Assembly: GCA_964016885.1 (NCBI GenBank)
Contig: OZ024742.1
Coordinates: 22,196,001 to 22,260,000 of the forward strand
Reading direction: 5' to 3'
From: Eledone cirrhosa
Lineage: Eukaryota
DNA: 64,000 nt
Shown here: in pieces, positions 2,553 to 63,610 of the stretch
Layout: each line of letters opens with the position of its first letter
Position numbering within the stretch: the first letter of the stretch is position 1
The notes under the pieces: model-generated
What the model saw: only the letters and a program-made list of their open reading frames with translations
The model's database searches: none
What the model was told of the DNA's origin: nothing
Program-made: the position numbers and the translations under genes

Positions 2553-3723
2553 ATATATTGTTTTTCAATTTAAAAAATCAACACAATTGGTATTTTTGAG
2601 CTGATTTTATGGTTACATGAGAGACTTGTGTCAGACACTAGAGAAGGGACACAATTTCACTGCTTGCCACAGGCACTATTTTCTCTAGTTACACCTTGGT
2701 ATGTTACACTATAATAACATATACAATACTCCATATTTATATAAAAATTTCATGAAAACTCTCCAAGATGTAAAATTAACTTCAAAAATATTCTAAGCTG
2801 CTAGAAATATACCAACATCTCCAGTATTCTTATAAATTACCATTAATCTGAAAACAAACTGGAAATATGATGAGAAAAGACCAGTGATGAAGAAGACAAA
2901 ATATTTTTTTATTTATAGCAATAGATTTACTTAACTGAATAGCTTTTTTTTTAAAAAGTTATTATATGTATTTTTACTTTTATTTTGGAATGTTATTTTT
3001 TTAATCTTTTCTAAAGAATTGGCACCAGACAGTCCATTTAATCAATTCCTTATTAAATATAAAACTCAGCACATCGTCTTCTCATGACTTTCCTCACTAC
3101 TGACTTCAGACTAAAGTTTGTCATTCAAATGAACAAACAGCTTCTTCTATAGATAAATGTATACCAAAATACTGTCTGTGACTTATTCCTGGAATCAGTA
3201 TCAATTCTCCAAACACACGTTGACAGCATCATCCATACAAAAATAGGAAACTCTATTATCATAATTTGCAAGTTCAAATGAAGGTCATGTTAGCTTTGTC
3301 CCTCCATGCTTCCTGAAATTCGCCAACACTACACCTGGTATTCCCCCTCCATACACACACACGCGTGTGTGTCTGTGTATATCATGACACATACACTGTT
3401 CACTTTCCTGACATTTGTACATTATTCTATGTACTACACATGCACCTTTGATGAGTTGTAGTGCACCTGAGCAATGTACACAATAATTTTCATCATATAT
3501 TGTATGAGTGTTCTAGTTGGTTCCGCAGCAGAAAAGCTTACTAATTAAATTAACATCTAAGTGACTGGGTATTCCACCAGGCATGTGTACTTTTAACATA
3601 ATTCTCAGGGAGATTCAGCATGACACAGTGTGTGTGTGTGTGTGCTGAAGGTAACCTTATGAATTACAGGTACATTCCCTCTGGCTGACTCTCAAACATC
3701 ATTATCATTATGTTAATAATTGT

Positions 3724-3820
3724 TGGTGAATTGGCAGTATCGGTAGAGGGTCAGACGCCATGCTTTGCAGCACAGTTACGTCCCTTTACGGACTGAGTTC
3801 AAATCCCGCCGAGGTGAACT
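3724..3820 (+). mobile_element. tRNA-derived SINE family 2, truncated
   Basis: TGGCAGTATCGG...GAGTTCAAATCCCGCCGAGGT. Fuller copies are at 35872 and 46395. Confidence 0.75.
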
Positions 3821-4498
3821 GTGTAAGTGATGTTGGTGATGATGGTGATGATGATGATTGTTTTAGTGTTGTTATTGCTGCTGGTCAGAATAATGATGAT
3901 GGAGAGTTTGTTGTTGTGGTGATGGTGTTGGTGGTTGTGGTGGTTATGATGACAATAAGGATAATGGTGATGTTGATGATGGTTTGTGGTGGCGGTGGTA
4001 ATGATGATGATGATGATTTTAGTGTTGCTGTTACTGCTAAGAATAATGATGATGATGATGATGGTGATAAAGTGCAGGTGAATCTTTACAGAAATGACTG
4101 AAAATGTTTCCAAGATATATTTGAACAGCAAATGAAAAAAAAAAAAAAAATTCAAATTTCAATATATATTTTTCTGAGGAATTTCAATTAAAATGTCAGT
4201 ATTGGTTTGGGGAAGGATATCTAAGTATTTATTACATAAATTGGAATTTCAAACTAACAGAAAATATACACGAAGCCTCAGTGGAACAATAAAAAAAAGG
4301 GAGATAACTTGTTTATATACTATGTCAGAACTGTAATTAACCCCCTCATCATATTTCTAATGAAAAACACTGCTTGTGGTTGTCAGACAATTTTGAAAAC
4401 TTTATTTACAATTGTATAAATAACATTACAAATTTGGGTGTGGTTACCTCTTAACATCCTGCAATGATTTACTTCTTGTCATCGCTGGTGGCTCGCCA

Positions 4499-4915
4499 TA
4501 CTGAGGTGTCAGGTGATGCCAGTGATAGTGCCAGGTTATCTCAGCACCTTAGCCTCGCCATCACCTGTAGTAATGTTGCGAGCATGTTGGCTTGCCTCAA
4601 AGTGTTTGACCCTTATGATGTGCTAACGACTGTCGCCTTATTGAGGTATTAGGTGATGCCAGTGAGGGTTCCTGGTTGTTTCAGCACCTTAGCCTCGCCA
4701 TCACCTGTAGTAATGTTGCGAGCATGTTGGCTTGCTTCAAAGTGTTTGACCCTTATGATGTGCGAACGACTGTCACCTTACTGAGGTGTCAGGTATGATG
4801 CCAGTAAGAGTACTTGGTTATTTCAGCGCCTTAGCCACACCATCACTTGTGGTAATGTTGCGAGTGTGTTGGCTTGCCTCAAATTGTTCCATTGACCCTT
4901 ATGATGTCGCCTGAT
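4499..4915 (+). repeat. Tandem repeat, about 140-bp unit x3
   Basis: TA(C/T)TGAGGT...GATGCCAGT...TTGACCCTTATGATGT recurs at about 4499, 4640 and 4779. Confidence 0.9.
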
Positions 4916-5778
4916 TGTCGTACTTGGTGGTGAATTAATGGTCGTTTTCGTTTTTGTTTCCCCTTTTTGTGTATCATATTTGATATATTTTTGTGTACTA
5001 TATTTGTGAGGTTCCTAGCAATACTTAACTGTATATTTTGTGTGTGTTTATATTTTCATTCTGTAAAGATTTGTAATATTTATACAACTGTGAATAATAA
5101 AAGTTCCCATGTTTACATAAAATTTTAGTAGAAAACATTAAAAAAAAAAGGTTTGTTAATTCAACCGTTTATAATATCTTTACTAGTGGACAGGTTTGGG
5201 GGATTCTTTTTAATGTAATGTAGTCAGAGTGATGTTTTCTACTTTTCAAGAGAGTCTTGCTAATGTAGTCCAAGGTTTTGCAACTGTCGATGTGTGGAGA
5301 ACTTCAACTTTATTCTTTAGCTCAAAATAATGAAACATACATTATGTTTGTCTACACAGATATCGATGAACTTACTTTACTATAAACTACTGTTAAGTTC
5401 TTTCGTTTGGTTTACGGTCCCTATCATTCAGTTTGAAATAAAAATATAATGTATAGAGTAGGGGAAATAACTCATGCATGTTACATTTATTTAAACAGCT
5501 GTTAACTCTTTTGTTACCTCCATATTTCTAATGAAAGACACCGTCTGACTTTCAAATAATTTCGAACGTAATCAGAATTTAAAAGGGATTAAGTAATATA
5601 ACTAACTTTGAAGTTTCAGGTGGCTTGATATGGGAAGATTTATAAGGAAAAACAGTAGAAAAGAGCCACAAGAAACGATAAGAAGTAGAGAGTTAATTAA
5701 ATAAAGGTAGGGCATAAAATATTGTCCAGGTATAAAAGATTAAAGAAATGTTTCTAGAAATTATTCAGTAAAGTTTAA

Positions 5779-5934
5779 CCCTTTAGCATTTAAACCGGCC
5801 ATATCCACGCAGAATTCTCTCACCTCTTTCTGTTCAAACTGGTCGTAACTTGCTACTCATACTGATGTTAAGGTATTGTTCTCAAAATAAATAATATCAA
5901 AAATACAATAGTATGTATAGAATAATGCAAAGGG
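5779..5934. mobile_element. piggyBac-like MITE
   Basis: TTAA|CCCTTTAGCATT ... AATGCAAAGGG|TTAA: terminal inverted repeats with a TTAA target duplication. Confidence 0.7.
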
Positions 5935-6146
5935 TTAAGGAATTCCATAAATAGAGATAATGAAATTGTCCACCACCACCACCGACGCTGTTGTCATCAT
6001 CATCATTTAATGTCTGTTTTGCCTACTAGCAAGGGTTGTACGAATTACTATAGTCCAATGGCTACTGGCAGTTAGAGGGCACAGGTGAAACAGAGCAGAG
6101 AAAAGATAGAAATTGAAAAATAGAGGAGAGTGGGCAGTTACAGAAA

Positions 6147-6204
<58 letters not shown>

Positions 6205-6345
6205 ATAAAAATAATGAAATTATTGTGTAAAGTGCTCAGGTGCACTACACCTCATCAAAGGTGCATGTATAGTACATAAAATAATATACAAATGTCGAGG
6301 AAGTGAATAGTGTATGGAGGGGGAACATTAGGTGAAGTGTTGGCG

Positions 6346-6690
6346 AAGCTCAGCTCTCACCACTTGCAGCAAGTTCTTCCTTGGTCTTCCTCTTCTGTGG
6401 CTTCTTTCCACTTGGATTACTTGGGATTTCTTTACCCAACTATCATCATCCATACACATGCCCATACCAATTCAGTCTCCTCTCTTGTACACTACTTCTG
6501 ATTCCTCTTATACTCAGTTTCTCCCTCAGTTTATCCATGTTTTATCAATCTCACACATTTTACATGGCACAACCATCAAAACCTGCTTGCTTCATATCTC
6601 TCCAGCCCCCACATATCCTCACTGTTCACTGCTTATATTTCACAACCATGCAGCATGGTACTTCACACAGAGGCGTCATACAGCTAACCT
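6346..6690 (-). mobile_element. Degenerate RTE 3' ORF fragment
   Basis: Homologous to 12230-12530 (WYGHV, GRPRKT and LRWM-like motifs on the minus strand). Confidence 0.65.
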
Positions 6691-7214
6691 GTATATATAT
6701 GAATATAGTAAATTGTGGTGAGTTTGTCAATCAAAGAGCTGATGTCAGCATTTCAGAGTGTATAAAACTTGCTATATGAGACAATTTGGAACTAAATATA
6801 TGCTTTTCATCTACTACAGTATATATATAACACATATAACACATCGTTCTAAAATAAAAAATATATATTTAACATATTTATATCACATATATTAATATGA
6901 ATAATTTTATATTATACATATTACCCCCTCCCCCATATATATCTATATATATATATGGATGTGTTACATTATATTTATATTTATTTATATTTTATATATA
7001 TTTCCATTTATATATGTATATTTATATTATATATATATTTTCATTTATATATGTATATTTATATATGTCTCACTCTCTCTCCCTCTTTATATATATGTGT
7101 GTATATATATACATATATATATATACATACAAATAGTCATTTATATATATATATACATATATACATACATATATTTATTTAGTATATACATATATTCATT
7201 TATGTATATATATG

Positions 7215-7298
<84 letters not shown>

Positions 7299-7729
7299 AT
7301 ATACTTTTAGTATATTTATTTCAAACAATAAAAGGAGAGTTTATCAAAGAACATTTTTTGTTGTTTTAAATGATACAATTGCTCTCAGTATTTGAGGAAC
7401 CATCAGTATATATCTGTTTCAGTATACACTCACAGTATACACACATACATATATACTCAGCCACACTAACACTTGCACACACACACACATATATACACAC
7501 ACACATGCACACCCACAGAAAACATATATACACGCATACTCAAACAGACGCAAACCCACGCATACCCCCACCACCACCACACAGAGTCAGACATGCACAT
7601 ATAGGCACCTCAAACACGTGTGTGTGTATATATATATATGTATATATGTATATATACACATATATGTGTGTGTGTGTTTATAGGTATGTATATATGTTTG
7701 AGAGTGTGTGTGTGTGAGTATGAGTGAGT

Positions 7730-8970
<1,241 letters not shown>

Positions 8971-9310
8971 AATACCGTATTTTTTATTAAATTCTGCCAT
9001 TCAGCTGTGATAGATGCAGTCATTTGATGTTGTTTGGGAACTGTTTTGATGTGAGACTTTTGGTGTTGTCTCGATAGACGCAACATATATACTATGTTTA
9101 CTATATATATACATAGATATATACATACACACACACATTAACATTACATACATATATATGTGCGTGTATGTGTACATGTATATATATATCTATATGTATA
9201 TACACATGCACACACTTTATATCTGTGTGTGTGGGTCTATATATGTGCATGTTTGTGTACATATGTGTGTGCATGTCTGCATTTCTGTCTCTCTCTCTAT
9301 ATATATATAA

Positions 9311-9886
9311 GTGGAAGGGATATTTAATTTGTTGGAAATTCCGCAAATATAAATGTTTATAACTGATTCAGAGCACTCGTCAGTTTTCTTGAGTAAATAT
9401 TCAATGATATTAAATAAATGGAAACTATATTTATAAAACCATATTTATTCTATTGTATATATTTCAAGGGTACCAAAAACTTTGGTACGCTTTCATCAGA
9501 TAAAATATAAAGAGTGTTTTATAAATTTTGACATAGCCAAGGAAATCATACTTTATCAGTTGAATATTCCTTGGGTAGTGAGATTATAGAACAGATTTTT
9601 CAAACTTAAGCAAATGAATAACAAGACCATGGCATCATATTCATTTGCATAATCATATTCATTTGCATAAAATCCATGTTTGAAAAATCCGTTCTATAAT
9701 CTCACTACCCAAGTAATATTCAACTGATAAGGTATGTTTTCCTTGGCTATGTCAACATTTATAAAACACTCTTTGTATTTTATCTGATGAAAGCGTACCA
9801 AAGCTTTTGGTACCCTTGAAATATATACAATAGAATAAATAAGGTTTTATAAATATAGTTTCCATTTATTTAATATCATTTAATAT

Positions 9887-11799: not shown

Positions 11800-13272
11800 A
11801 TCATCATCATCATCATCATCACCGTTTTACGTCCGTTCTTCCATGCTAGCATGGGTTAGATGGGTTGTTCTGTTGTGGGCAGTGTCTGGTCGGCTGACCA
11901 TGCCTTGCTCATACAGGAACTGATTTGGCTTGATTTGTACAGCTGGATGCCCTTCCTAACACCAACCTCATTTACAGTGAGTGCTGGGTGCTTTTTCCGT
12001 GGCGCCTACACATCCACTTTACAGTGTGGACTGGGTGCTTTTTTGCCGTGGCACCTCCACGACCACCTTGCAGTGGGAGGGTGTGGGGCATATTGTCTAT
12101 ATGCTTCAGCTTGTACCCATGGGAGGTCGGGTACTCTGTATTACTGCGTGACGCCACAGGTCACGGTCGTGTGTCACCGCCTTTGAGAGGTGTAATTGGG
12201 TAAGGTCGGCTTTTATCACCTCATCCTAGGTCTTCTTGGGTCTCCCCACTCCACGGTCTCCATTGACTTTTTATGCAGTTGTCATCCTTCATACGCATCA
12301 CATGTCCATACCAACGCAACCACCTCTCCTGCACACATCATTTGATTCCTCTTATGCTCAGTCTCTCTCTCAATTCATTTATGCTTTGTCGTTCGAGTAT
12401 ATTACTATTACACATCCATCGGAGCATGCAGGCTTCATTTCTTTCTAATCTACGTAAGTCTTCCACCTTCAGCGCCCAGGTCTCACTACCATGTAACATT
12501 GCTGTTCGGATACACGCATCATACAGTCTGCCTTTAATTTTGAGGGAGAAGCCTTTTGCAGCTAGCAGTGGCAGTAGTTCCCTGAATTTCTTCCATCCCG
12601 TTCTTACCCTAGTTATTGTACTTCCTGAACACCCACCTCCGCTACTAATTCGGTCACCTAGGTAGCAGAAGCTATCTACTGTTTCTACAGAGCCCTCCCA
12701 GAGATTGGTGGTACTTGTTTCCTGTGGCTGTTTGCTGCTTACTGTCCCAGCACAGCTGCTGCATGTGAAGCCTACATTCTTAATTAGGGTTCCTGAGATC
12801 ACGCTACATCTCTTGTGTACCCATTGTTTGCATTTGGGGCAGAGAATGGAGTTCCTACCTACACCTTTCCTACATACTGAGCAAGGCCATTTCCCTGAGG
12901 AGATCTGGGTTCTGTTTTCTCGTCTACTTACAAGGACCTTAGTCTTTGTCATGTTGACTTTGAGACCCTTTCTTTCTAGTCCCTGCTTGGAATTTCTTCT
13001 CTAGTTCTACCATAGATTCAGCTATAAGTGCGAGGTCATCAACATACAGGAGTTCCCATGGGCATCCGGTCTTAAACTCCTCCGTTATTGCCTGCAGGAC
13101 TATGATGAACAGGAGAGGGCTAAGAACAGAGCCCTGGTGGACACCAACCTGTATGCTAAATTCCTCGCTATACTCATTGTTAATCCTAACTTTGCTGACT
13201 GCTCCCCTATACATGGCTTGTACAGCTTTCACAAGCCATTCATCTACTCCTAGTTTTCTAAGAGCCAACCAG
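11800..13272 (-). mobile_element. 5'-truncated RTE LINE (RT, 3'UTR, (GAT)n tail)
   Basis: ORFs 12939-13268 (GVHQGSVLSP, YVDD) and 12338-12952 (PHD-like finger, YLG, HGSETW). Confidence 0.95.
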
Positions 13273-13299: not shown

Positions 13300-16200
13300 A
13301 CCTACCCAATATCCCTCCCACCCGCCCCCACGCACCACCATTATTACGTGGGCCAATCATAAGTCAGCGGCCTATGCTATCACTTACCTGGTTGCCTTTC
13401 GATATGATGGATGGACTACGGAATTCTGGAGAGTTTGAAAATAAAAATCTGGACACTCAGTGACAATGCCAAAGATAAAGACAAATTCACCTCATGCTGC
13501 CGGACGAGAATGCAAGGATTCCTCCTCTTTGTTTCGGCCGCGGATGGCTAACATAACCCCATCTCCCTCACTCCACCCTGCGCCCCACTACTCCCACCCT
13601 CCAAACGCAATTCAAAACTTCAGAGTTGGTACCATGAATGTAGGCACCCTAAAGGGTCGCTCTAACGAGGTTGTAGAAATGCTTGAACGTAAGGAGGTCG
13701 ATGTTTGTTGTATTCAAGAGACCAGGTGGAGGGGTGGGTCTGCTAGGTATATTGTGGGTAAAGAACGATGCTATAAGCTTTTCTGGGTGGGAAATGACAA
13801 TGGGCTGGGTGGAAGCAATCATGGTAGCAGAAAAGTGGGCAGATAAGATAATAGACGTAAATAGGGTGAACGACAGAATAATTAAAATAAGACTTGTCCT
13901 CAATAGAACTACTGTGACAATAATATCTGCATATGCACCACAATCCGGACTGCCTGGCATTATAAAAGACAGATTCTATGAGACATTGATGCTCACTACC
14001 TCCCAAATAACCGACAGTGACTACATAGTTATCGCTGGCGACCTAAATGGTCACGTTGGACAACATTGTGACGGCTATGATGGAATCCATGGAGGCTATG
14101 GGTTTGGTACTAGAAATGAGGAAGGCTCCAGAATCATGGAATTCTGTGACGCAAATAACCTAACTATCTGTAACACTAACTTCAAAAACGAGACAATCAC
14201 TTGATCACTTATAGATCGGGGGGAACACACAAGCCAGGTAGATTATATCCTTACCAGGAGACATGACAGAGTGTCTGTTGTAAACACTAAATCCCTCCCC
14301 CATGAAGAATGCACCTCTCAACATAGACTCATAATTAGCGACGTAGACTCAACATAGACTCATAAAACTCGAGACATACTCGCCAACAGAAGAGGACTAT
14401 CCTCAGGAGAAAAATATGGAAGTTAAAAGACCCCACAGCCAGTAATAAATTTAAAAGCATATTACTTGATGCTTTTGATAGTAAGGAAGAGCAATTAGAG
14501 TCGTACAATATAGAGGAACAGTGGGAATTCCTGAAAGCTAACCTGCTGAAGGCAACAGATGAAACCTGTGGCTGGAGCAGGCCTATAGGCAGGAGGAGAG
14601 TAACTTGGTGGTGGAACAGGAAGGTGGAGGGGTCAATCAAGGCCAAAAAGCAGGCTTGGAAAGCATGGCGGGATGGGAGAAGTAGAGAAGACTATCAAGT
14701 GGCCAGGAGGGAAGCTAGGAGACAAGTGTACTTCGCAAGAAGGGAAGCAGAGGAAAGAAAGTTCAAGCATGTTCTACAACGCGAGGACCAAAAACGTGAG
14801 GTGTTCAGGATTGCTAGGCAATGTGTCAAGGAAAACAGTGATATTGTTGGGGAGAAGTGTGTCCTTAATGATGATGGTGTACTTGCCATCACTGATGCTG
14901 ATAAGAAGGTAGCTTGGAAGTGTCACTACAAAAGGCTACTAAATGAGGAGAATAATTGGGAGAAAGACAATCTCCCCCACATCGACCCAATAGAGGGACC
15001 AGCAGTGCAAGTTGAAAGTAGTATAATAAGTAAGGCGATCAAAGACATGAAGACGGGCAAGGCGGCCGGGCCTTCGGAAATAGTTGCTGAAATGCTGAAA
15101 GCATCTGGAACGGTGGGACACACTATGGTCACCCGGATAGTAAACCAAGTCATACAGAATGGGGTCGTTCCAAAGGACTGGCGCAGCAGCATCATCATTA
15201 ACTGCTACAAGGGAAAAGGTGATGCCTTAGATAGGGGAAACTATAGAGGCATTAAATTAATTGACCAAGTCATGAAGGTCACAGAAAAAGTAATAGCGAC
15301 AACTAATCAGAGAGCGAATTGATCTAGACGAAATGCAGTTCGGGTTTGTGTCAGGTAAAAGTACAACAGACGCTCTCTTCATTGTACGACAACTACAGGA
15401 GAAGTACCGAGCTAAAAGTAAACCCCTATACTTAGCCTTTGTCGACTTGGAGAAAGCTTTCGACAGAGTCCCCCGTTCCATTATCTGGTGGGCTCTTAGA
15501 AAACTAGGTGTTGACGAATGGCTTGTGAGAGCTATACAAGCCATGTATAAAGAAACAGTCAGCAAGGTTAGAATTAACAACGAATATAGTGAAGAGTTTA
15601 GCGTAAAAGTTGGTGTTCATCAGGGCTCCGTCCTTAGCCCCCAACTATTTATTCTTGCCCTTCAGGCTATAACAGAGGAGTTCAAGACTGGCTGCCCATG
15701 GGAACTCCTATATGTAGATGATCTAACGCTCATAGCTGAATCAATGGCTGAACTAGAGAAGAATTTACAAACATGGAAGCATGGCCTAGAATCAAAAGGC
15801 CTTAAAGTTAACTTGTCTAAGACTAAAGTTCTAGTTTGTAGGAAGGAAAATAGGGCACCGGTCCCATCTGGGAAATGGCCATGCTCAGTGTATAGGAAAG
15901 GAGTAGGCAGAAACTCCATTTTATGTCCCAAATGCAAAGTATGGGTGCATAAAAGATGTAGTTGGATCACAGGTAAGCTAACTAAGAATATAGATTTTAT
16001 ATGTGGCCGGTGCTCTGGTGCAATAAGTAGCAGCAAGTGCCCACTGAATACTAGCTCATTCCATTGCACAGATGGTTCTATAGAAATATTGGACAGCTTC
16101 CGTTACCTGGGTGACAAAATCAGCAGTGGGGGAGGGTGCTCTGAAAGTACAGTAGCTAGAGTCAGAACGGGATGGAAAAAGTTCAGAGAGCTTATACCAC

Positions 16201-17056
16201 TATTGGCCGCTAAAGGGTTCTCTCTAAAAATGAAAGGCAGGCTGTATGATGCCTGCATACGAACAGCAATGTTACATGGCAGTGAGACCTGGGCATTGTG
16301 TGCAGAGGATATACACAGACTGGAGAGAAACGAAGCTTGCATGCTCCGCTGGATGTGTAAAAGTAATATACGTGAACGGCAAAGCATAAACGAACTAAGG
16401 GAGAAATTAGGAATAAGAGGGATCAGATGTTGTTTATTTGAGAGAAGACTACGTTGGTACGGTCACGTGATGCACATGAAAGACGACAGCTGTATAAAAA
16501 AGTGCAGGGCGATAAAAATAGACGGTAGCCATGGAGTAGGCAGACCCAGAATAACCTGGGACGACTTGATAAATTCCGACCTCACACACTTACACCTCTC
16601 CAAGACAATGTCACTGGACTGAGATCTTTGGTGCTACACAGTTATACAGAAGACCCGCCTTACCTAAGTACAAAGCGAAACCTACAGTCAGTAGGCACCT
16701 CTAACAAAATACATCCCCGTCCCCACTACCCCCACCCCATCCACACCACCGCCTTAAATGTGAAGTTATGTTGGTACCACAGTCCGAAACAAATGAGGTT
16801 GTGTAGGTGTCATGACAAAAAAAACACACAGTCCACGCTGTAATGTGGCCGTGTAGGTAACACGGTAAAAACCCCCCAGTCCACACTGTAAACGTGGTTG
16901 GTATTAGGAAGGGCATCCAGCCGTAGAAAACCCGCCAGACAGTCCTATACGAGCAGGATAACCAATCTTGCCTCAAGTGGGAAAACTCCCGTCCAAACCC
17001 ATGCAAGCATGGAAGATGGACGTTAAACGATGATGAGGATGATGATGATGATGATG
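13300..17056 (+). mobile_element. Near full-length RTE LINE, frameshifted (APE endonuclease plus RT)
   Basis: GTMNVGTL..IQETRW (ORF 13460), SAYAPQ/GDLNGH (ORF 13683), NYRGIKL (ORF 14624), QFGF/DLEKAFD/YVDD (15333-16622), then 3'UTR and (GAT)n tail. Confidence 0.97.
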
Positions 17057-21719: not shown

Positions 21720-21782
<63 letters not shown>

Positions 21783-21794
21783 TATGATAATAAT

Positions 21795-22010
21795 GGAGCT
21801 GTGGCGCTGCAAATGGGTTACATATGAAAAAGTTTGTCCTCATCAGTGGCCTTCCAACCGTCGTAGGCATTTCATAGCACCACGGCCATTGCCAATACGA
21901 TTTGTTTTTATTGATTTATTATCTTAATCAAGACAGACAAACTGTAATATTATTATTAGTATATTTCAATCTAGCTAACTTGGTCATTTACAATACGAAC
22001 ATGTGTTTAT
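21795..22010 (-). mobile_element. Family D element fragment (permuted HHR-like motif)
   Basis: Minus strand TGAAATGCCTA...CCACTGATGAGGAC...CATATGTAACCCAT, shared with 27038-27100 and 47526-47590. Confidence 0.55.
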
Positions 22011-22037
22011 CAAATATATTAATTTATATTAACTTGT

Positions 22038-22217: not shown

Positions 22218-22548
22218 CATCATCATCATCATTTTATGTCCGCTTTTCCCTGCTTGCAAGGGTGGGACGGGAACTGATTCTGGCTTGATTTCTACAGCTG
22301 GATGCCCTTCCTAACACCAACCTCATTTACAGTGAGTGCTGGGTGTTTTTTTGCCATGGCACCTCCATGACCACTTTGCAGTGGAATGATAGGGACCCTA
22401 TCATCTCATTTCTACAGCTGAGTAAACTGGAGCAATGTGAAATAAAGTGTCTTGCTCAAGGAAACAACACATCACTCGGTCTGAGAATTGAACTCACAAC
22501 CTTTCGATTGCAAGTCCAATGCTCTAACCACTAAGCCATCTGCCTCCA
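22213..22548 (-). mobile_element. tRNA-derived SINE with RTE tail
   Basis: Same family as 511-850. Confidence 0.9.
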
Positions 22549-22741: not shown

Positions 22742-22812
22742 GATGTGTTGGTGTAATGGTAGCACAGTGGTCTGGATAACAAAAGATGTGGGTTCGACTC
22801 CCATGTACATCA
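22742..22812 (+). pseudogene. tRNA-like sequence (tRNA pseudogene or SINE head)
   Basis: GATGTG/TACATC acceptor-like stem, A box TGGTGTAATGG, T-loop GGTTCGACTCC. The anticodon stem pairs poorly. Confidence 0.55.
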
Positions 22813-26653: not shown

Positions 26654-26656
<3 letters not shown>

Positions 26657-27132
26657 CTTCCCTGCTCTCTCTGTTTCTCTCACCTTCTTTCGCCCCCTCT
26701 GTCAGTTACACTTTCTCTCGACTGACCTCTTCCTCACACTTCCACTCACTCACTCTCTGTTTCTCCCCTTCTCACTTCCTCCCGTTTGGTTTGTGTAGGT
26801 CTTTTCTTGCTCACATCTGACACACATCAACATGGTCTGTACCTCTCTCGCTCATGAAATCCACCCAGTTTATGCTGACCGGACAACCATGTTGCTTGTT
26901 TATTTTCCTATCTTCGGTTTGCTTTTATCCTTCTATGTTGTTTACTTGTCCTCCTCGCTTTATGCGATTTACTGGTCCCAATAACTTTTTTTTACTTACT
27001 GCTCGCACCAACCTGAGGTATCTGATTTTTAATGCGATGAAATACCAATGGTGGTTGGAAAATCTCTGACGAAGGACTATTTTTATCATATGTAACCCAT
27101 GTGCAAAACACGCAGTATTCTTCTTTCTTCTC

Positions 27133-27138
<6 letters not shown>
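26654..27138 (+). mobile_element. Family D element (CT-rich leader plus permuted HHR-like motif)
   Basis: Colinear with 47140-47609. Flanked by (TA)n on both sides. Confidence 0.65.
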
Positions 27139-28824: not shown

Positions 28825-29248
28825 TATATCTAACAAACCTGGACCTATATATATATATATATATACATGCATACGTATATATACTACGCATGTGTATATA
28901 TATTATACATATACAATCCTTATCACGTCCTCTTTGCATTTTGGTCTTTGTATTTATTATTACTATATATATATATATCTGCGTTCACAGATTGATTTTT
29001 TTTTGTTTCACAAGATCCCGTTAAGTGTGAAAGCAGCGATTCTTTGCTTAAACTTTAATCTGTTATTTTAATAAATATATAAAAATGTATATATCTATAT
29101 ATATATATATATATAGAAAGGAAGCAGCCATCCTTTGGATGTGCAATGTAAATGTGAGAAAATAGTAGAGTGTGGATTAACTGAGGAAAAACTGGGTCTA
29201 AAAGGAATCCGAAGTGGTGTACAAGGAAAAGATTGCATTGGTATGAAC

Positions 29249-31620
29249 ATTGCTAGGCTATGTGTCAAGGAAAACCGTGATATTGTTGGGGAGAAGTGTG
29301 TACTAAATGATGATGGCGTACTCGCCATCACTGACGCTGATAAGAAGGTCGCTTGGAGGTGTCACTACGAGAGGCTACTAAATGAGGAGAATAAATGGGA
29401 GAAGGATAGTCTCCCCCAGATCGATCCAATAGAGGGACCAGCAGTGTTAGTTGAAGGTAGTATAATAAGTAAGGCGATCAAAGATATGAAGACGGGTAAG
29501 GTGGCTGGGCCTTCGGAAATAGTTGCTGAGATGCTGAAGGCCTCTGGAACGGTGGGACACACCATGGTCACCCGGATAGTAAACCAAGTCATACAGAATG
29601 GGGTTGTTCCGAAGGACTGGCGTAGCAGCATCATCATTAACTGTTACAAGGGTAAAGGAGACGCCCTAGATAGGAGTAACTATAGAGGCATTAAATTAAT
29701 CGACCAGGTCATGAAGGTCACGGAAAAAGTAATAGTGCAACTAATCAGAGAGAGAATCGATCTAGATGAAATGCAGTTCGGGTTTGTGTCAGGCAAAAGT
29801 ACCACAGACACTCTTTTCCTTGTACGACAACTACAGGAGAAGTACCTAGCTAAAAGTAAACCCCTATACTTAGCCTTTGTCGACTTGGAGAAAGCCTTTG
29901 ACAGAGTCCCCCGTTCCATTATCTGGTGGGCTCTTAGAAAACTAGGTGTTCACGAATGGCTTGTGAGAGCTATACAAGCCATGTATAAAGAAACAGTGAG
30001 CAAGGTTAGAATTAACAACGAATATAGTGAAGAGTTTAGCGTAAAAGTTGGTGTCCATCAGGGCTCTCTTCTTAGCCCCCTACTATTCATTATTGCTCTT
30101 CAAGCTATAACAGAGGAGTTCAAGACCGGCTGCCCATGGGAACTCCTATACGCAGATGACCTAACGCTCATAGCTGAATCAATGGCCGAGCTAGAGAAGA
30201 AATTCCAAACATGGAAGCACGGCCTAGAATCAAAAGGCCTTAAAATTAACATGGCTAAGACTAAAGTTCTAGTTTGTAGGAAAGAAAATAAGGCGCCGGT
30301 CCCTTCCGGGAAATGGCCATGCTCAGTGTGTAGGAAAGGCGTAGGTAGAAACTCCATTTTATGTCCCAAATGCAAAGTATGGGTGCATAAAAGATGTAGT
30401 GGGATCACAGGTAAGCTAACTAAGAACACAGATTTTACATGTGGCCGGTGCTCTGGTGCAATAAGTAGCAGCAAGTGCCCACAAAATACTAGCTCTTTCA
30501 ACTGCGCAGAGGGTTCTATAGAAATATTGGACAGCTTCCGTTACCTGGGTGACAAAATCAGCAGTGGGGGAGGGTGCTCCGAAAGTACAGTAGCTAGAGT
30601 CAGAACGGGATGGAAAAAGTTCAGAGAGCTTATACCACTATTAGCTGCTAAAGGGTTCTCCCTAAAAGTGAAGGGCAGGTTGTATGATGCCTGCATACGA
30701 ACAGCAATGTTGCATGGCAGTGAGACCTGGGCATTGTGTGCAGAGGATATACACAGACTAGAGAGGAACGAAGCTTGCATGCTCCGCTGGATGTGTAATA
30801 GTAATATACGCGAACGGCAAAGCATAAACGAACTAAGGAAAAAATTAGAAATAAGAGGGATCAGATGTTGTTTACTCGAGAGAAGGCTACGTTAGTATGG
30901 TCACGTGATGCGCATGAAAGACGACAGCTGTATAACAAAGTGCAGGGCAATAAAGATAGATGGTAGCCACGCAGTAGGCAGACCCAGAAAAACCTGGGAC
31001 GAGCTGATAAATTCCGACCTCACACACTTACACCTCTCCAAGACAATGTCACTGGACCGAGACCTTTGGCGGTACTCAGTAACAGAGAAGACCCGCGTTA
31101 CCTAAATACAAAGTAAAACCTACTACAGTCAGTAGGCATCTCTAACAAAATACACCCCCGTCCCACCACCCCCACCCCATCCACACCGCCCCTTTCAATG
31201 TAAAGTTATGTTGGTGCCACAAAATCCAGGCCGAAACAAATGAGATTGTGTAGGTCTCACGAAAAAAAGACACACAGTCCACGCTGTAATGTGACCGTGT
31301 AGGCAACACGGTAAAAACGTCCCAGCCCCACACTGTAAATGTGGTTGGTGTTAGGAAGGGCATCCAGCTGTAGAAAACCTGCCAGACAGTCCACGCTGTA
31401 ATGTGGCCGTGTAGGCAACACGGTAAAAACCTCCCAGCCCCACACTGTAAATGTGGTTGGTGTTAGGAAGGGCATCCAACTGTAGAAAACCCGCCAGACA
31501 GTCCTATGCGAGCAAGACAACCACTCTTGTCTCAAGTGGGAAAACTCCCGTCCAAACCCATGCAAGCGTGGAACACGGACGTTAAACGATGATGATGATG
31601 ATGATGATGATGATGTGATG
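29249..31620 (+). mobile_element. 5'-truncated RTE LINE with long RT ORF
   Basis: ORF 29135-30895 with YADD and a PHD-like finger, premature TAG at 30893, 3'UTR with a 112-bp duplication, (GAT)n tail. Confidence 0.97.
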
Positions 31621-42828: not shown

Positions 42829-42858
<30 letters not shown>

Positions 42859-42864
<6 letters not shown>

Positions 42865-43762
42865 GTTAAAAATGTACATCCACATATGTATACTGAAACA
42901 CTAGTATGCACATGATTACACACACGTATACATATGTAGATGTACCGAGTTTTTCACTGGTCACTTTACTGTGAGTGTCCAGCTATTCTGTATGTAAACA
43001 CACAGACAAACCGGCTTTTAGAGTCATACAGGTTTTTGAGGAAACACCTTTCCTCTATTCTCCAGAAAGCCAGACAAGGAATATTGAACTAGTTTCGATG
43101 TTGTTACATCTCATCAGCAATATTTACCTATCTTCCGGCATCTCTAGAGAATCGTAAAAGCACATATCGTTATATGCTTTTTCTATGAAAATTAGTAGTG
43201 GGCAGACTAACTTGCATAGAGCGTAAGTACGTACCGGTTCAACGGAGACGATAAAAACAAATAACGAAACGAAATTTAATTCCGTTTCGTTATTTGTTTT
43301 TATCGTCTCCGTTGAACCGGTACGTACTTACGCTCTATGCAAGTTAGTCTGCCCACTACTAATTTTCATAGAAAAAGCATATAACGATATGTGCTTTTAC
43401 GATTCTCTAGAGATGCCGGAAGATAGGTAAATATTGCTGATGAGATGTAACAACATCGAAACTAGTTCAATATTCCTTGTCTGGCTTTCTGGAGAATAGA
43501 GGAAAGGTGTTTCCTCAAAAACCTGTATGACTCTAAAAGCCGGTTTGTCTGTGTGTTTACATACAGAATAGCTGGACACTCACAGTAAAGTGACCAGTGA
43601 AAAACTCGGTACATCTACATATGTATACGTGTGTGTAATCATGTGCATACTAGTGTTTCAGTATACATATGTGGATGTACATTTTTAACTTAATTGTTTA
43701 AGCGTCTGTCATACAAAAGTGAGTTACAAACGAAACGAAATTTAATTCCGTTTCGTTATTTG

Positions 43763-46706: not shown

Positions 46707-46883
46707 CATGATGGTAGTAGTAGTAGTATGAAGCATGAGAGGCATGAGATAAGAGAGATCAAAAGATTGTCATTGTAAATGTAAGATAGCTGACAGGCTG
46801 CATGTGTGTGTATGTATGTGCGTGTATGTGTGTAAGTGTATATATATGTGTGTGTGTAAGTGTATATATATATATATATATAT

Positions 46884-47605
46884 AATAAAATAAGTCCCTC
46901 ATCAGTGATTTGCCGAAGATCATAGATATTTCATTGCATTAAAAATCATATATCTCACTTCGGTGCAATAATAACCAAAATAAGTTATTAGGACAATTAA
47001 AACGCGTAAAGCGAGTGAGACAGGAGAACAACAGAAAAATTAGCATACCTTAGGGGAGAAACAAGCTTCAAAAATTATTCGTTTAGCATAAGCTAGGTGA
47101 ATATATGAGAGCTGAGATATTTTAATACATATATTTACCACTGCGATTCTGTGTTTTTTTCTCTCTCTCTTACTGTTCCCCCATTCTCTCTGTTTCTCCC
47201 CCTCTGTCTTGTCCGTTAACTCTTCCTCACACTTTCACTCACTCACTGTTTTTCTCCCTCTTCTCTTCATTTCATCCTGCACTCACGAACGCTATTTTTT
47301 CTCTCTCTGCTCAATGGCCTTCGTTTGTGTTGGTACTATTCTCTCAGCTCTCATATATTCACCTAGCTTATGCTAAACGAATAATTTTTGAAGCTTGTTT
47401 CTCCCCTAAGGTATGCTAAATTTTCTGTTGTTCTCCTGTCTCACTCGCTTTACGCGTTTTAATTGTCCTAATAACTTATTTTGGTTATTATTGCACCGAA
47501 GTGAGATATATGATTTTTAATGCAATGAAATATCTATGATCTTCGGCAAATCACTGATGAGGGACTTATTTTATTACATGTTACCATGTACGACCTGCAG
47601 TATTT

Positions 47606-47609
<4 letters not shown>
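46884..47609. mobile_element. Family D fold-back element (about 233-bp arms, CT-rich spacer)
   Basis: 46884-47116 is inverted at 47343-47575, nearly perfectly. Flanked by (TA)n. Confidence 0.9.
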
Positions 47610-47699
<90 letters not shown>

Positions 47700-47703
<4 letters not shown>

Positions 47704-48375
47704 GAAACTATATTTATAAAACCATATTTATTCTTTTATATATATTTCAAGGGTACCAAAACTTTTGTACGCTTTCATCAGATAAAATGCAAAGTGTGTT
47801 TTATAAATTTTGACATAACCAAGAAAAATACCTTAACGGTTCAAGTTTTCCTTGGATAGTGAAGGGATAAGAGAAGAAAAGTCAGATATTTCAAATTGTT
47901 AAGATGAGTATGCAAATGATGTTGAAAAAATGTTATTTTAGACGCTATGGAGAATTTAAATAATTATGATATGTGTATGTATGCATAGAAGAAAAATGAA
48001 GAAGAGCTTGTATTTACGTTAATTTGGGGGAAAGGTGGAATATGATTCCAGAGTTTAAATTTAAATTTATTTACCTATATTATGAGTTATAATATTGTAT
48101 ATATGGACGTTAAACGAAGATGATGATGATGATGAATCAATTAGATTATATGAAGAATTATGGTTATAAGTATTTTTATCTTATTACATTACAATAGGTT
48201 ATATGTATATAAATATCTATATAGATTAATAATTGTGCATGTATTAGTATTATAGAAATAGAAATAATTTACAATTATTAATTGTTTCTAATATGAAAAA
48301 CAGTTGAGTGCTCTGAATCAGTTATTAACATTTATATTTGTTGAATTACCAACAAATTGAATATCCCTTTTGCTT
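47700..48375. mobile_element. Family A pLTR-like element (minus arm 47700-47935; plus tail 48290-48375)
   Basis: Homologous to 9417-9580, including the TTTCAAGGGTACC...CTTTCATCAG HHR-like core, and to 9311-9385 in reverse complement. Confidence 0.75.
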
Positions 48376-49960: not shown

Positions 49961-51676
<1,716 letters not shown>

Positions 51677-51745
51677 CTAGTGGTTAGAGCATTGGGCTTG
51701 CAATCGAAAGGTTGTGAGTTCAATATATATATATATATAGAGAGA

Positions 51746-52424
51746 GAAGATGAATATAAAATGAAAGTGCTTTTATAAAGAAATTTATTAGGTATTGACA
51801 TATGTTTCTGTAACAGACGGAATACCTATGTATCGCTGCTTGCGTAATCATATAATGTTAGCAAGTATTCGATAGCGAATGTATAATCAGTTGTCACTTC
51901 TTCAGAGATATTGGATAAATTGGAAAAAATCAGAAAAATCAAAGTATTTATATTAGTTGTAAGAAAGGAAGAAGAGAGGGGATAGTATATGACAGATGGC
52001 AATTCAATTTGCTGGTAAACAAGTATATAGAAGGTTTTTAATGAAAATACAATGAGTATATGGCTTATTTTATCTAAATAAGAATTTTGGGAGTGCCTAT
52101 TTTAATCTATATTTGACCAATTGAACAATGGACAGGGCTCGTCGTTTGGTGTAGTAGTATTAATACAGATATAAAGTGTCAATTAAGGAAGAGGGAGATT
52201 TTTACTGCTACTGTATAACAACAATGCTGGTAGCCTGCTGGTATATGCATTAAGGAATTGAATTAAGAAATCTATTTTTATCTATAGCAGTTTATATTAA
52301 ATGGTAAAGAATAGAAGAGTTGATAGAATTAAGACTAATAGAGAATGTTAATATGTATTTTGACAATCAAACGGAGATGGAGACAGGCGTTCAATCCTGG
52401 TAGCGTTTGTAATATGAAAATGTA
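51746..52424 (-). mobile_element. PLE segment A (inverted pLTR / 3' region)
   Basis: Reverse complement of 53598-54277. Confidence 0.92.
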
Positions 52425-63267: not shown

Positions 63268-63610
63268 TTAGGTAATTCCGAAAGAAAAGCAAAGGAAAAA
63301 AGAGTGCTCTATGTATAGAACAGAGCTATTTAATTGGGAAGTGAACAACACAATATATAACTACTCCATTACCAAAGGTTTCTGGATCACAGACGATAAC
63401 AATAACAATATAATATACATCTGGATCAGTCGTCAGGCAAAGATGTTATAGATAAAAGATATGATTTTAAATCTCATTTCAACATCTTTTATCTTTAATA
63501 TATCTGTCTGACGACCGATCCAGATGTATATTATATCATTATCGTCTGTGATCCAGAAACCTTTGGTAATGCAGTAGTTGTATTTTGTATTATTCACTTT
63601 CTAATTAAAT
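63268..63610. mobile_element. Older fold-back pLTR-like element with HHR-like core
   Basis: About 63328-63460 is inverted at about 63484-63610 (diverged). CTGACGA-c.GATCCAGATG...CGTCTGTGATCCA-GAAACCTTTGGTA at 63508-63568. GAGTGCTCTATGTA is shared with 48816-48829. Confidence 0.75.

Follow-up and report, generated by a model that had tools for sequence, protein, structure and literature searches.

A predicted non-circularly permuted hammerhead at the 3' end of a high-copy Naiad-type repeat in Eledone cirrhosa

Our analysis indicates that the 3' end of a high-copy, Naiad-type Penelope-like repeat in Eledone cirrhosa probably encodes, on its plus-strand RNA, a hammerhead whose conserved blocks are permuted in a non-circular way. 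The motif lies in a window of 64,000 nt (the whole stretch of DNA that was analysed, whose positions are used throughout), which consists of AT-rich, microsatellite-laden DNA of animal type with LINE fragments. Comparison of its copies gives good support to a fold of type SGC, in which the cleavage-site strand (S) precedes both GAAA (G) and CUGANGA (C).

A search of the window with nhmmer returned four homologous matches, three copies and a mirror arm of the first, and no others at E<=10:

47118 to 47608, plus strand: copy 1 carrier repeat, about 490 nt, CT-rich, with a (TA)n run as its 3' limit
47465 to 47565, plus strand: copy 1 predicted ribozyme, whole; type-SGC core in which a four-way junction divides stem II
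46880 to 47117, minus strand: mirror arm, inverted and 5'-truncated, with (TA)n at its end; identical ribozyme at 46894-46994
26654 to 27138, plus strand: copy 2 repeat, flanked by (TA)n runs; ribozyme at 26974-27078
27022^27023, plus strand: copy 2 cut as predicted by hammerhead analogy
21781 to 22036, minus strand: copy 3 repeat, of a diverged subfamily, flanked by (TA)n runs; ribozyme layout at 21935-21835

Copies 1 and 2 are both about 490 nt long, non-coding and bounded by (TA)n, and the copy 1 carrier contains no internal ATG-started ORF of more than 35 aa. The mirror arm, which the original prediction had listed beside three diverged copies, differs from 47342-47579 at 2 of 238 positions and thus represents the same insertion as copy 1 rather than an independent copy, while the homology of the copies themselves stands. 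Missing from this arm is 47580-47608, the 29-nt tail of the copy 1 carrier. No ORF with an N-terminal GIY-YIG, a CxC motif and a reverse transcriptase (RT) was found inside the ribozyme copies of the window, and the 19 ORFs scanned, out of 78 listed, gave LINE-like RT, PHD and endonuclease matches only. The LINE-like pieces lie at 29117-30895, 15297-16622, 13677-14204 and 12338-13000: a 592-aa frame in which a PHD finger comes after the RT, another frame with an RT, a weak match to an endonuclease and, standing apart on the minus strand, a PHD finger. Also present among microsatellites are tRNA-like matches (22742-22812, 22481-22538 and 51666-51737, one of them tRNA-Ser by ARAGORN), which are possibly SINE heads.

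The 680 records of sequencing run X1 sum to a depth of 150,000-300,000 over the motif against 3,000-9,000 across much of the upstream part, a difference that points to a very abundant repeat family. The copies in the window may represent an autonomous Naiad truncated to its 3' end, or they may form a 0.5-kb non-autonomous retrozyme-like unit. Record 9 of run X3 (window 47200-47605; library type not on record) is a single 489-nt contig of depth 2.2 in which 47512-47605 is followed by 89 other letters and then by 47200-47505, that is, a head-to-tail unit of about 495 nt. Both of its ends lie within 6 nt of the predicted cut; contigs cannot reveal RNA ends, and this one record is not evidence of cleavage.

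A listing of all helices places the blocks of copy 1 in the order Site, GAAA, CUGANGA, with the cleavage-site strand upstream of GAAA. All of the parts lie on the plus strand:

47465 to 47469: 5' strand of helix IIa, paired with 47562-47565 (4/4), with a possible U47469.G47561 wobble
47469 to 47490: hairpin IIb, 6-7 bp
47490 to 47495: 5' strand of helix IIc, the functional stem II; partner 47521-47526, directly 5' of GAAA; pseudoknot 1
47496 to 47501: 5' strand of the 'I' helix, which links stems I and II; partner 47541-47546
47504 to 47516: block S, with a stem III strand (47504-47509; U16.1 = 47509), H17 (A47510) and a stem I strand (47511-47516)
47521 to 47535: block G, with the 3' strand of IIc, GAAA (47527-47530) and the 3' strand of stem III (47530-47535)
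47548 to 47565: block C, with the 3' strand of stem I (47548-47553; pseudoknot 2), CUGAUGA (47554-47560) and the 3' strand of IIa

Stem III of copy 1 (47504-47509 with 47530-47535) begins with A15.1-U16.1, and stem I (47511-47516 with 47548-47553) adjoins CUGAUGA; position numbers such as U16.1, H17 and A15.1 are those that we take to apply by the hammerhead convention. The cut in copy 1 is accordingly placed by analogy, as a prediction, at 47510^47511, after A47510 and about 98 nt before the end of the element. CUGANGA, GAAA and the UH core are complete in copies 1 and 2 (in copy 2, GAAA at 27039 and CTGACGA at 27066), and the six helices form 34/34 pairs in copy 1 and the mirror, 32/34 in copy 2 and 29/32 in copy 3, with stem III at 6/6 and 5/5. 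Copy 3 (on the minus strand, GAAA at 21873 and CTGATGA at 21846) is probably inactive because U16.1 is missing and IIc has decayed (3/5). MAFFT alignments had suggested a 13-nt deletion in this copy, which we reject, as pairing based on coordinates recovers the full layout.

Stem II formed directly between blocks G and C amounts to 1 bp: its GAAA-side strand pairs upstream instead, and the strand 3' of CUGANGA pairs with 47465-47468 rather than with block G. In an alternative register, A47490-U47526 together with U47469.G47561 leaves no unpaired junction base; copy 3 also allows it, and copy 2 is mismatched at both places. By eye, the IIb loop agrees with its positional counterpart in the Octopus Naiad consensi if 47483 is read as A, which is more frequent there than other letters in runs X1 and X5.

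Much of the original prediction survives in this scheme. GAAA does come before CTGATGA, which is followed by GGGAC with no GAAA downstream; the hairpin upstream of GAAA is real (47491-47495 with 47521-47525) and recurs among the copies, except that the arm assigned to it in copy 3 (21894-21890) fits better as a stem III strand; and a GTCC-type strand further upstream indeed pairs with the GGAC after CTGANGA. The proposal of a permuted hammerhead-like RNA that departs from the usual Penelope type I layout, with a four-way junction in place of stem II, is likewise borne out, and both helices named there either covary or are conserved. What does not hold is the circular permutation in type II order, the actual order being non-circular. 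The stem III proposed after GAAA is a single pair whose U is A in copy 2, the stem I proposed there pairs at 4, 3 and 2 of 4 positions in copies 1-3, and the cleavage site assigned after 47536 is misplaced. Stem I had looked weak in the older copies because it had been given the wrong partner; the correct one pairs at 6/6, 6/7 and 5/5 in copies 1, 2 and 3.

Between copies 1 and 2, the SGC structure shows 5 two-sided compensatory changes in 27 pairs, a count reached by 12 of 500 shuffles, and two broken pairs, both terminal; slid controls gave at most one two-sided change. This direct count rests on two related copies, and their covariation, taken alone, is modest. In the 'I' helix, three of the six pairs are changed on both sides in copy 2, and copy 3 adds further two-sided changes in stems I and III. 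Identity between copies 1 and 2 is 11/12 in the core (the difference being H17), 40/52 at paired and 33/48 at other positions. Contigs of four sequencing runs vary at 11 sites inside 47463-47570, six of which constitute three partner pairs: 47498/47544 (variants at 36% and 41%), 47500/47542 (91% and 84%) and 47506/47533 (94% and 17% in X1, 100% and 65% in X5). The other five comprise one U.G wobble, three loop or linker sites and one that removes a terminal pair, and no variant is listed for these contigs in the core, stem I or IIa; in one contig a single nucleotide is inserted after 47541. In copy 2 the three partner changes all occur together in cis; the run tables themselves give no phase and omit differences close to contig ends, and the window itself may come from X1. 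The G.U intermediates favor the plus strand as the RNA strand.

It might be argued that these pairings arose by chance, or belong to an unrelated structure (e.g. one with C/D-box-like words), in an AT-rich repeat. Over 47380-47608, Rfam gives four weak snoRNA matches (E 0.5-7) and no hammerhead; at gathering score it finds only three tRNA matches in the whole window, and among the 150 listed of 245 matches in an E-value scan hammerheads appear only at 43064-43135 and 43419-43490. However, Rfam models cannot represent the S-G-C order, and a C/D-box snoRNA would explain none of the covariation, for which reason we reject it; a SECIS element was also rejected by eye, as no helix II is present. 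When everything outside the two core boxes was shuffled, the SGC arrangement with four helices of at least 5 bp occurred in 3 of 20000 shuffles of copy 1 and in 1 of 20000 of copy 2. The compensatory changes already contradict chance, these controls and the recurrence by eye of the same layout in Naiads of four phyla (below) also speak against it, and this explanation is in our judgment extremely unlikely. Within the window, an SGC descriptor matched copies 1 and 2 and the mirror only, and a descriptor scan found no type-CSG motif elsewhere. A pattern scan of metagenomes for the core words hit at least 118 loci, with no family member among the matches listed; the 119 listed included one minimal SGC core and none with outer helices. 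The type II (G-S-C) hammerhead of the original prediction, in which stem III is a single pair, a hairpin downstream of GAAA serves as stem I and the cut falls after 47536, would fit the 4-bp hairpin stem of copy 1 and its UA at 47535-47536. Minimal Penelope hammerheads have one-pair stems III, as exemplified by a type I motif at 43430-43474. However, copy 2 has lost UH, A accounts for 17% (X1) and 60% (X5) of summed contig depth at 47535, the stem keeps 2/4 pairs in copy 3, and the loop is not palindromic. Covariation above shuffles was not found for this structure, since just one of its 14 pairs changes on both sides from copy 1 to copy 2 and 240 of 500 shuffles reach that count, and its mean pairing probability is 0.02, so that it has next to no chance of being the right one. 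A viral scan (124 loci, 129 matches) yielded 37 ordinary type II hammerheads, which have a direct stem II of at least 3 bp and mostly long stems III, and two weak SGC-core matches without supporting helices. One viral contig (L158-L160) carries seven type II hammerheads spaced a few hundred bases to 2 kb apart, a known kind of cluster.

Several other repeats of the window carry similar words. A repeat with CTGATGA forms an inverted pair at about 9450-9830 and occurs once at 47700-47830, directly after the (TA)n of copy 1, with no match to the SGC or CSG descriptors. Another inverted pair (about 63380-63560) has CTGACGA in each arm and no hammerhead descriptor match, and an AT-rich repeat with CTGAAGA has four near-identical copies on both strands, at 51905, 54119, 54529 and 58636.

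In the type-SGC fold, which is well supported, the cleavage-site strand pairs forward twice: stem III joins it to the letters that follow GAAA, and stem I to those that precede CUGANGA. This creates two pseudoknots, and the extra helix ties together the far ends of stems I and II. The chain is opened just after CUGANGA, the GAAA-side strand of stem II pairing upstream, with IIa and IIb sealing the four-way junction. By analogy with the hammerhead family, self-cleavage after A47510 would leave a 2',3'-cyclic phosphate and a 5'-OH. The role, which is the least certain step, might be to cut tandem or read-through transcripts into unit-length RNAs. Such unit-length release has been shown in animal retrozymes, and it is the role that was proposed for the type I hammerheads of Penelope-like elements (PMC8557442, bioRxiv 10.64898/2026.07.22.740005). 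Since genomic copies span the cut site, insertion must start from RNA that is uncut or re-joined; in vitro, unprocessed RNA was the main substrate of an anole element (PMC11167929).

Some features speak against activity. The conserved G10.1-C11.1 pair is absent, 11.1 being U in all three copies; a possible partner of this U is A in copies 1 and 3, and copy 2 has a mismatch there. The helices of copy 1 are short and AU-rich, with isolated duplexes at -2.3 to -7.0 kcal/mol; pseudoknot-free folding retains IIa and IIb as well as the 'I' helix and III, and is unable to score I and IIc alongside them. On one side, only 2-3 nt connect the 'I' helix to stem III, a short link that is difficult to place on the known hammerhead structure, as it also is in the published SGC (PMC10085705).

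These weaknesses lend themselves to two other explanations. The fold could be derived from a hammerhead and no longer cut here, serving instead as a protein-binding or priming signal for the Naiad RT at the RNA's 3' end. The replaced G10.1-C11.1 pair and the weak helices would agree with this, as would the fact that genomic copies span the cut site. In vitro, moreover, another Penelope-like element could insert without cleavage (PMC11167929). However, copies 1 and 2 retain all catalytic-core letters and the UH site, the runs list no core variant, and related SGC and CSG RNAs do cleave (PMC10085705); we therefore regard a non-cutting fold as unlikely. The short linker could also be relieved if the helices formed between two RNA molecules, as a strand-swapped dimer. 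Minimal Penelope hammerheads have been reported to work as dimers. Against this, a palindromic loop such as those behind the known dimers is missing, and published SGC and CSG ribozymes with equally short links cleave during transcription (PMC10085705), which makes a dimer very unlikely.

We suggest that the window repeat probably belongs to the Naiad clade, because it shares both fold and insertion anatomy with it. Naiads have (TA)n targets, inverted 5'-truncated copies, a 30-40 bp tail at one end and very high copy numbers (Craig et al. 2021, PMC8557442), and the window copies resemble them in their (TA)n target, inverted truncated copy, one-end tail (29 nt) and high copy number, though the (TA)n, inverted-copy and tail features are also common to other Penelope-like clades. 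In that paper, Naiads are stated to be without canonical hammerheads, and some bear 'HHR_core' or 'HHR_half_core' marks that fit no descriptor (PMC8557442). We inspected the last 400-450 nt of 29 of the 54 published consensi (File S5) by eye, without computed pairings: 7 have the window layout, 2 another SGC form, 4 the CSG form, 1 is ambiguous and 15 have none. The assignments, all by eye, are as follows:

Naiad_Obim, Ovul and Esco (cephalopods): window layout
Amil and 2_Movir (cnidarians): window layout
Plae (acanthocephalan): window layout, IIa and IIb partly cut off
Bfor (ctenophore): window layout, stem I only 2 bp
Ptep and Lpol: SGC core with another stem II arrangement
Smim, 1_Nbra, 3_Nbra and Hpol: plain type CSG
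Ppla: ambiguous

By eye, the helix letters of all seven window-layout Naiads are unrelated to those of the window motif; the Amil Naiad, for instance, has 13 pairs in stem III, 6 each in I, IIc, IIa and IIb, and 10 in the 'I' helix. In six of these seven, the core-closing pair is G-C, its G coming from the upstream strand. The type CSG layout was seen by eye in nematode and spider Naiads, and one additional CSG motif in an unnamed entry. The window copies differ from the Naiad consensi compared in being at most about 0.5 kb long, without ORF, and in their helix letters, and no clear likeness to the 3' ends inspected by eye was seen outside the ribozyme. The 3' ends of Naiad_CGi, 1_Skow, 1_Pfla, 1_Chem and 2_Chem have no hammerhead words and share another conserved motif.

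The closest known relatives of the fold are the type-SGC ribozymes (HRIMA-1 and variants), a double-pseudoknot permutation that cleaves in vitro at the predicted site; all reported examples come from metatranscriptomes, and no genome of a known organism was found to contain one (Eckert et al. 2023, PMC10085705). The window motif has the same S-G-C order and the same two pseudoknots. The published SGC has a short link between stems I and II and a helix joining the two (PMC10085705), and the window motif likewise has a joining helix, which is 6 bp long and covarying, with a 4-nt link. However, one strand of this helix lies 5' of block S in the window motif and 3' of block C in the published SGC, whose stem II forms directly between blocks G and C rather than as a four-way junction. 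Furthermore, block C of the window motif is interrupted after CUGANGA, a separation assumed to be impossible in PMC10085705. The one-pair direct stem II and the U at 11.1 weaken membership of any described type and not the claim that the motif works like one. By analogy, the window motif would work like type SGC, yet it falls outside the class as defined. The published descriptors would miss it because they demand CGAAA, CUGAUGA(U)G and a direct stem II (PMC10085705).

Type CSG is represented by two unique sequences from soil DNA, which cleave in vitro and for which no host is given (PMC10085705). It shares its cyclic block order with the window motif, and the 'I' helix encloses block C in both; CSG is opened before block C, whereas the window motif is opened inside stem II. 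The window fold would thus be a circular permutation of the plain type-CSG ribozymes of nematode and spider Naiads, and the most apt description is that the cyclic order common to SGC and CSG has been opened immediately 3' of CUGANGA, with two additional helices closing the gap. The layout of the two soil-DNA ribozymes (PMC10085705, supplementary figure 10) looks, by eye, identical to that of the nematode Naiad motifs, and these ribozymes may come from Naiads of soil animals.

Canonical Penelope-like elements and animal non-LTR retrozymes carry type I hammerheads near the 3' end or in the pseudo-LTR, and the window motif is likewise near an element end; like retrozymes, its repeat is a short non-coding unit, possibly head-to-tail (one contig). 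Type I is a three-way junction and often minimal, whereas the window motif forms a double pseudoknot, and both stem I and stem III are full (PMC7229834, bioRxiv 10.64898/2026.07.22.740005, PMC11167929). Ordinary type I hammerheads do occur nearby: 42854-43700 holds a 423-nt near-perfect inverted repeat, (TA)n-flanked, with a minimal Penelope-type motif in each arm (43064-43135, minus; 43419-43490, plus; Rfam HH9 at 36.5 bits, gathering score 52) that has, by eye, a palindromic 4-nt loop III and a 7-bp stem I. This repeat is a second, ordinary Penelope-like family.

The original prediction had raised the possibility of an undescribed ribozyme variant, and nothing matching was found in the open-licence PMC and bioRxiv literature. 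Within that scope, we found no report of permuted (non-circular) hammerheads in Naiads or animal genomes, and 'type-SGC' appears in the discovery paper only. On balance, we lean toward the broader view that many Naiads, in ctenophores, cnidarians, acanthocephalans, nematodes, chelicerates and cephalopods, carry active non-circular hammerheads as a series (plain CSG, SGC and a four-way-junction form opened after CUGANGA, the last outside the six block orders to which hammerhead permutations had been considered limited), that animal genomes are their main high-copy home, and that the window family is perhaps a 0.5-kb retrozyme-like unit that releases monomers. Animal ribozyme counts are probably too low, because current Rfam models and published descriptors miss the fold.

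Such a series would give non-circular RNA permutations, hitherto a matter of unassigned environmental contigs, a place in animal genomes, where thousands of natural variants would be open to covariation and structural work. A hammerhead core that tolerates a strand break beside A9 would bear on the origins of permutations and on ribozyme design. Moreover, the finding would overturn the statement that Naiads lack hammerheads and would account for the orphan 'half cores'. The case for Penelope-like elements thriving in the absence of a ribozyme would fall away, and the role of the ribozyme in Penelope retrotransposition would become testable across clades.
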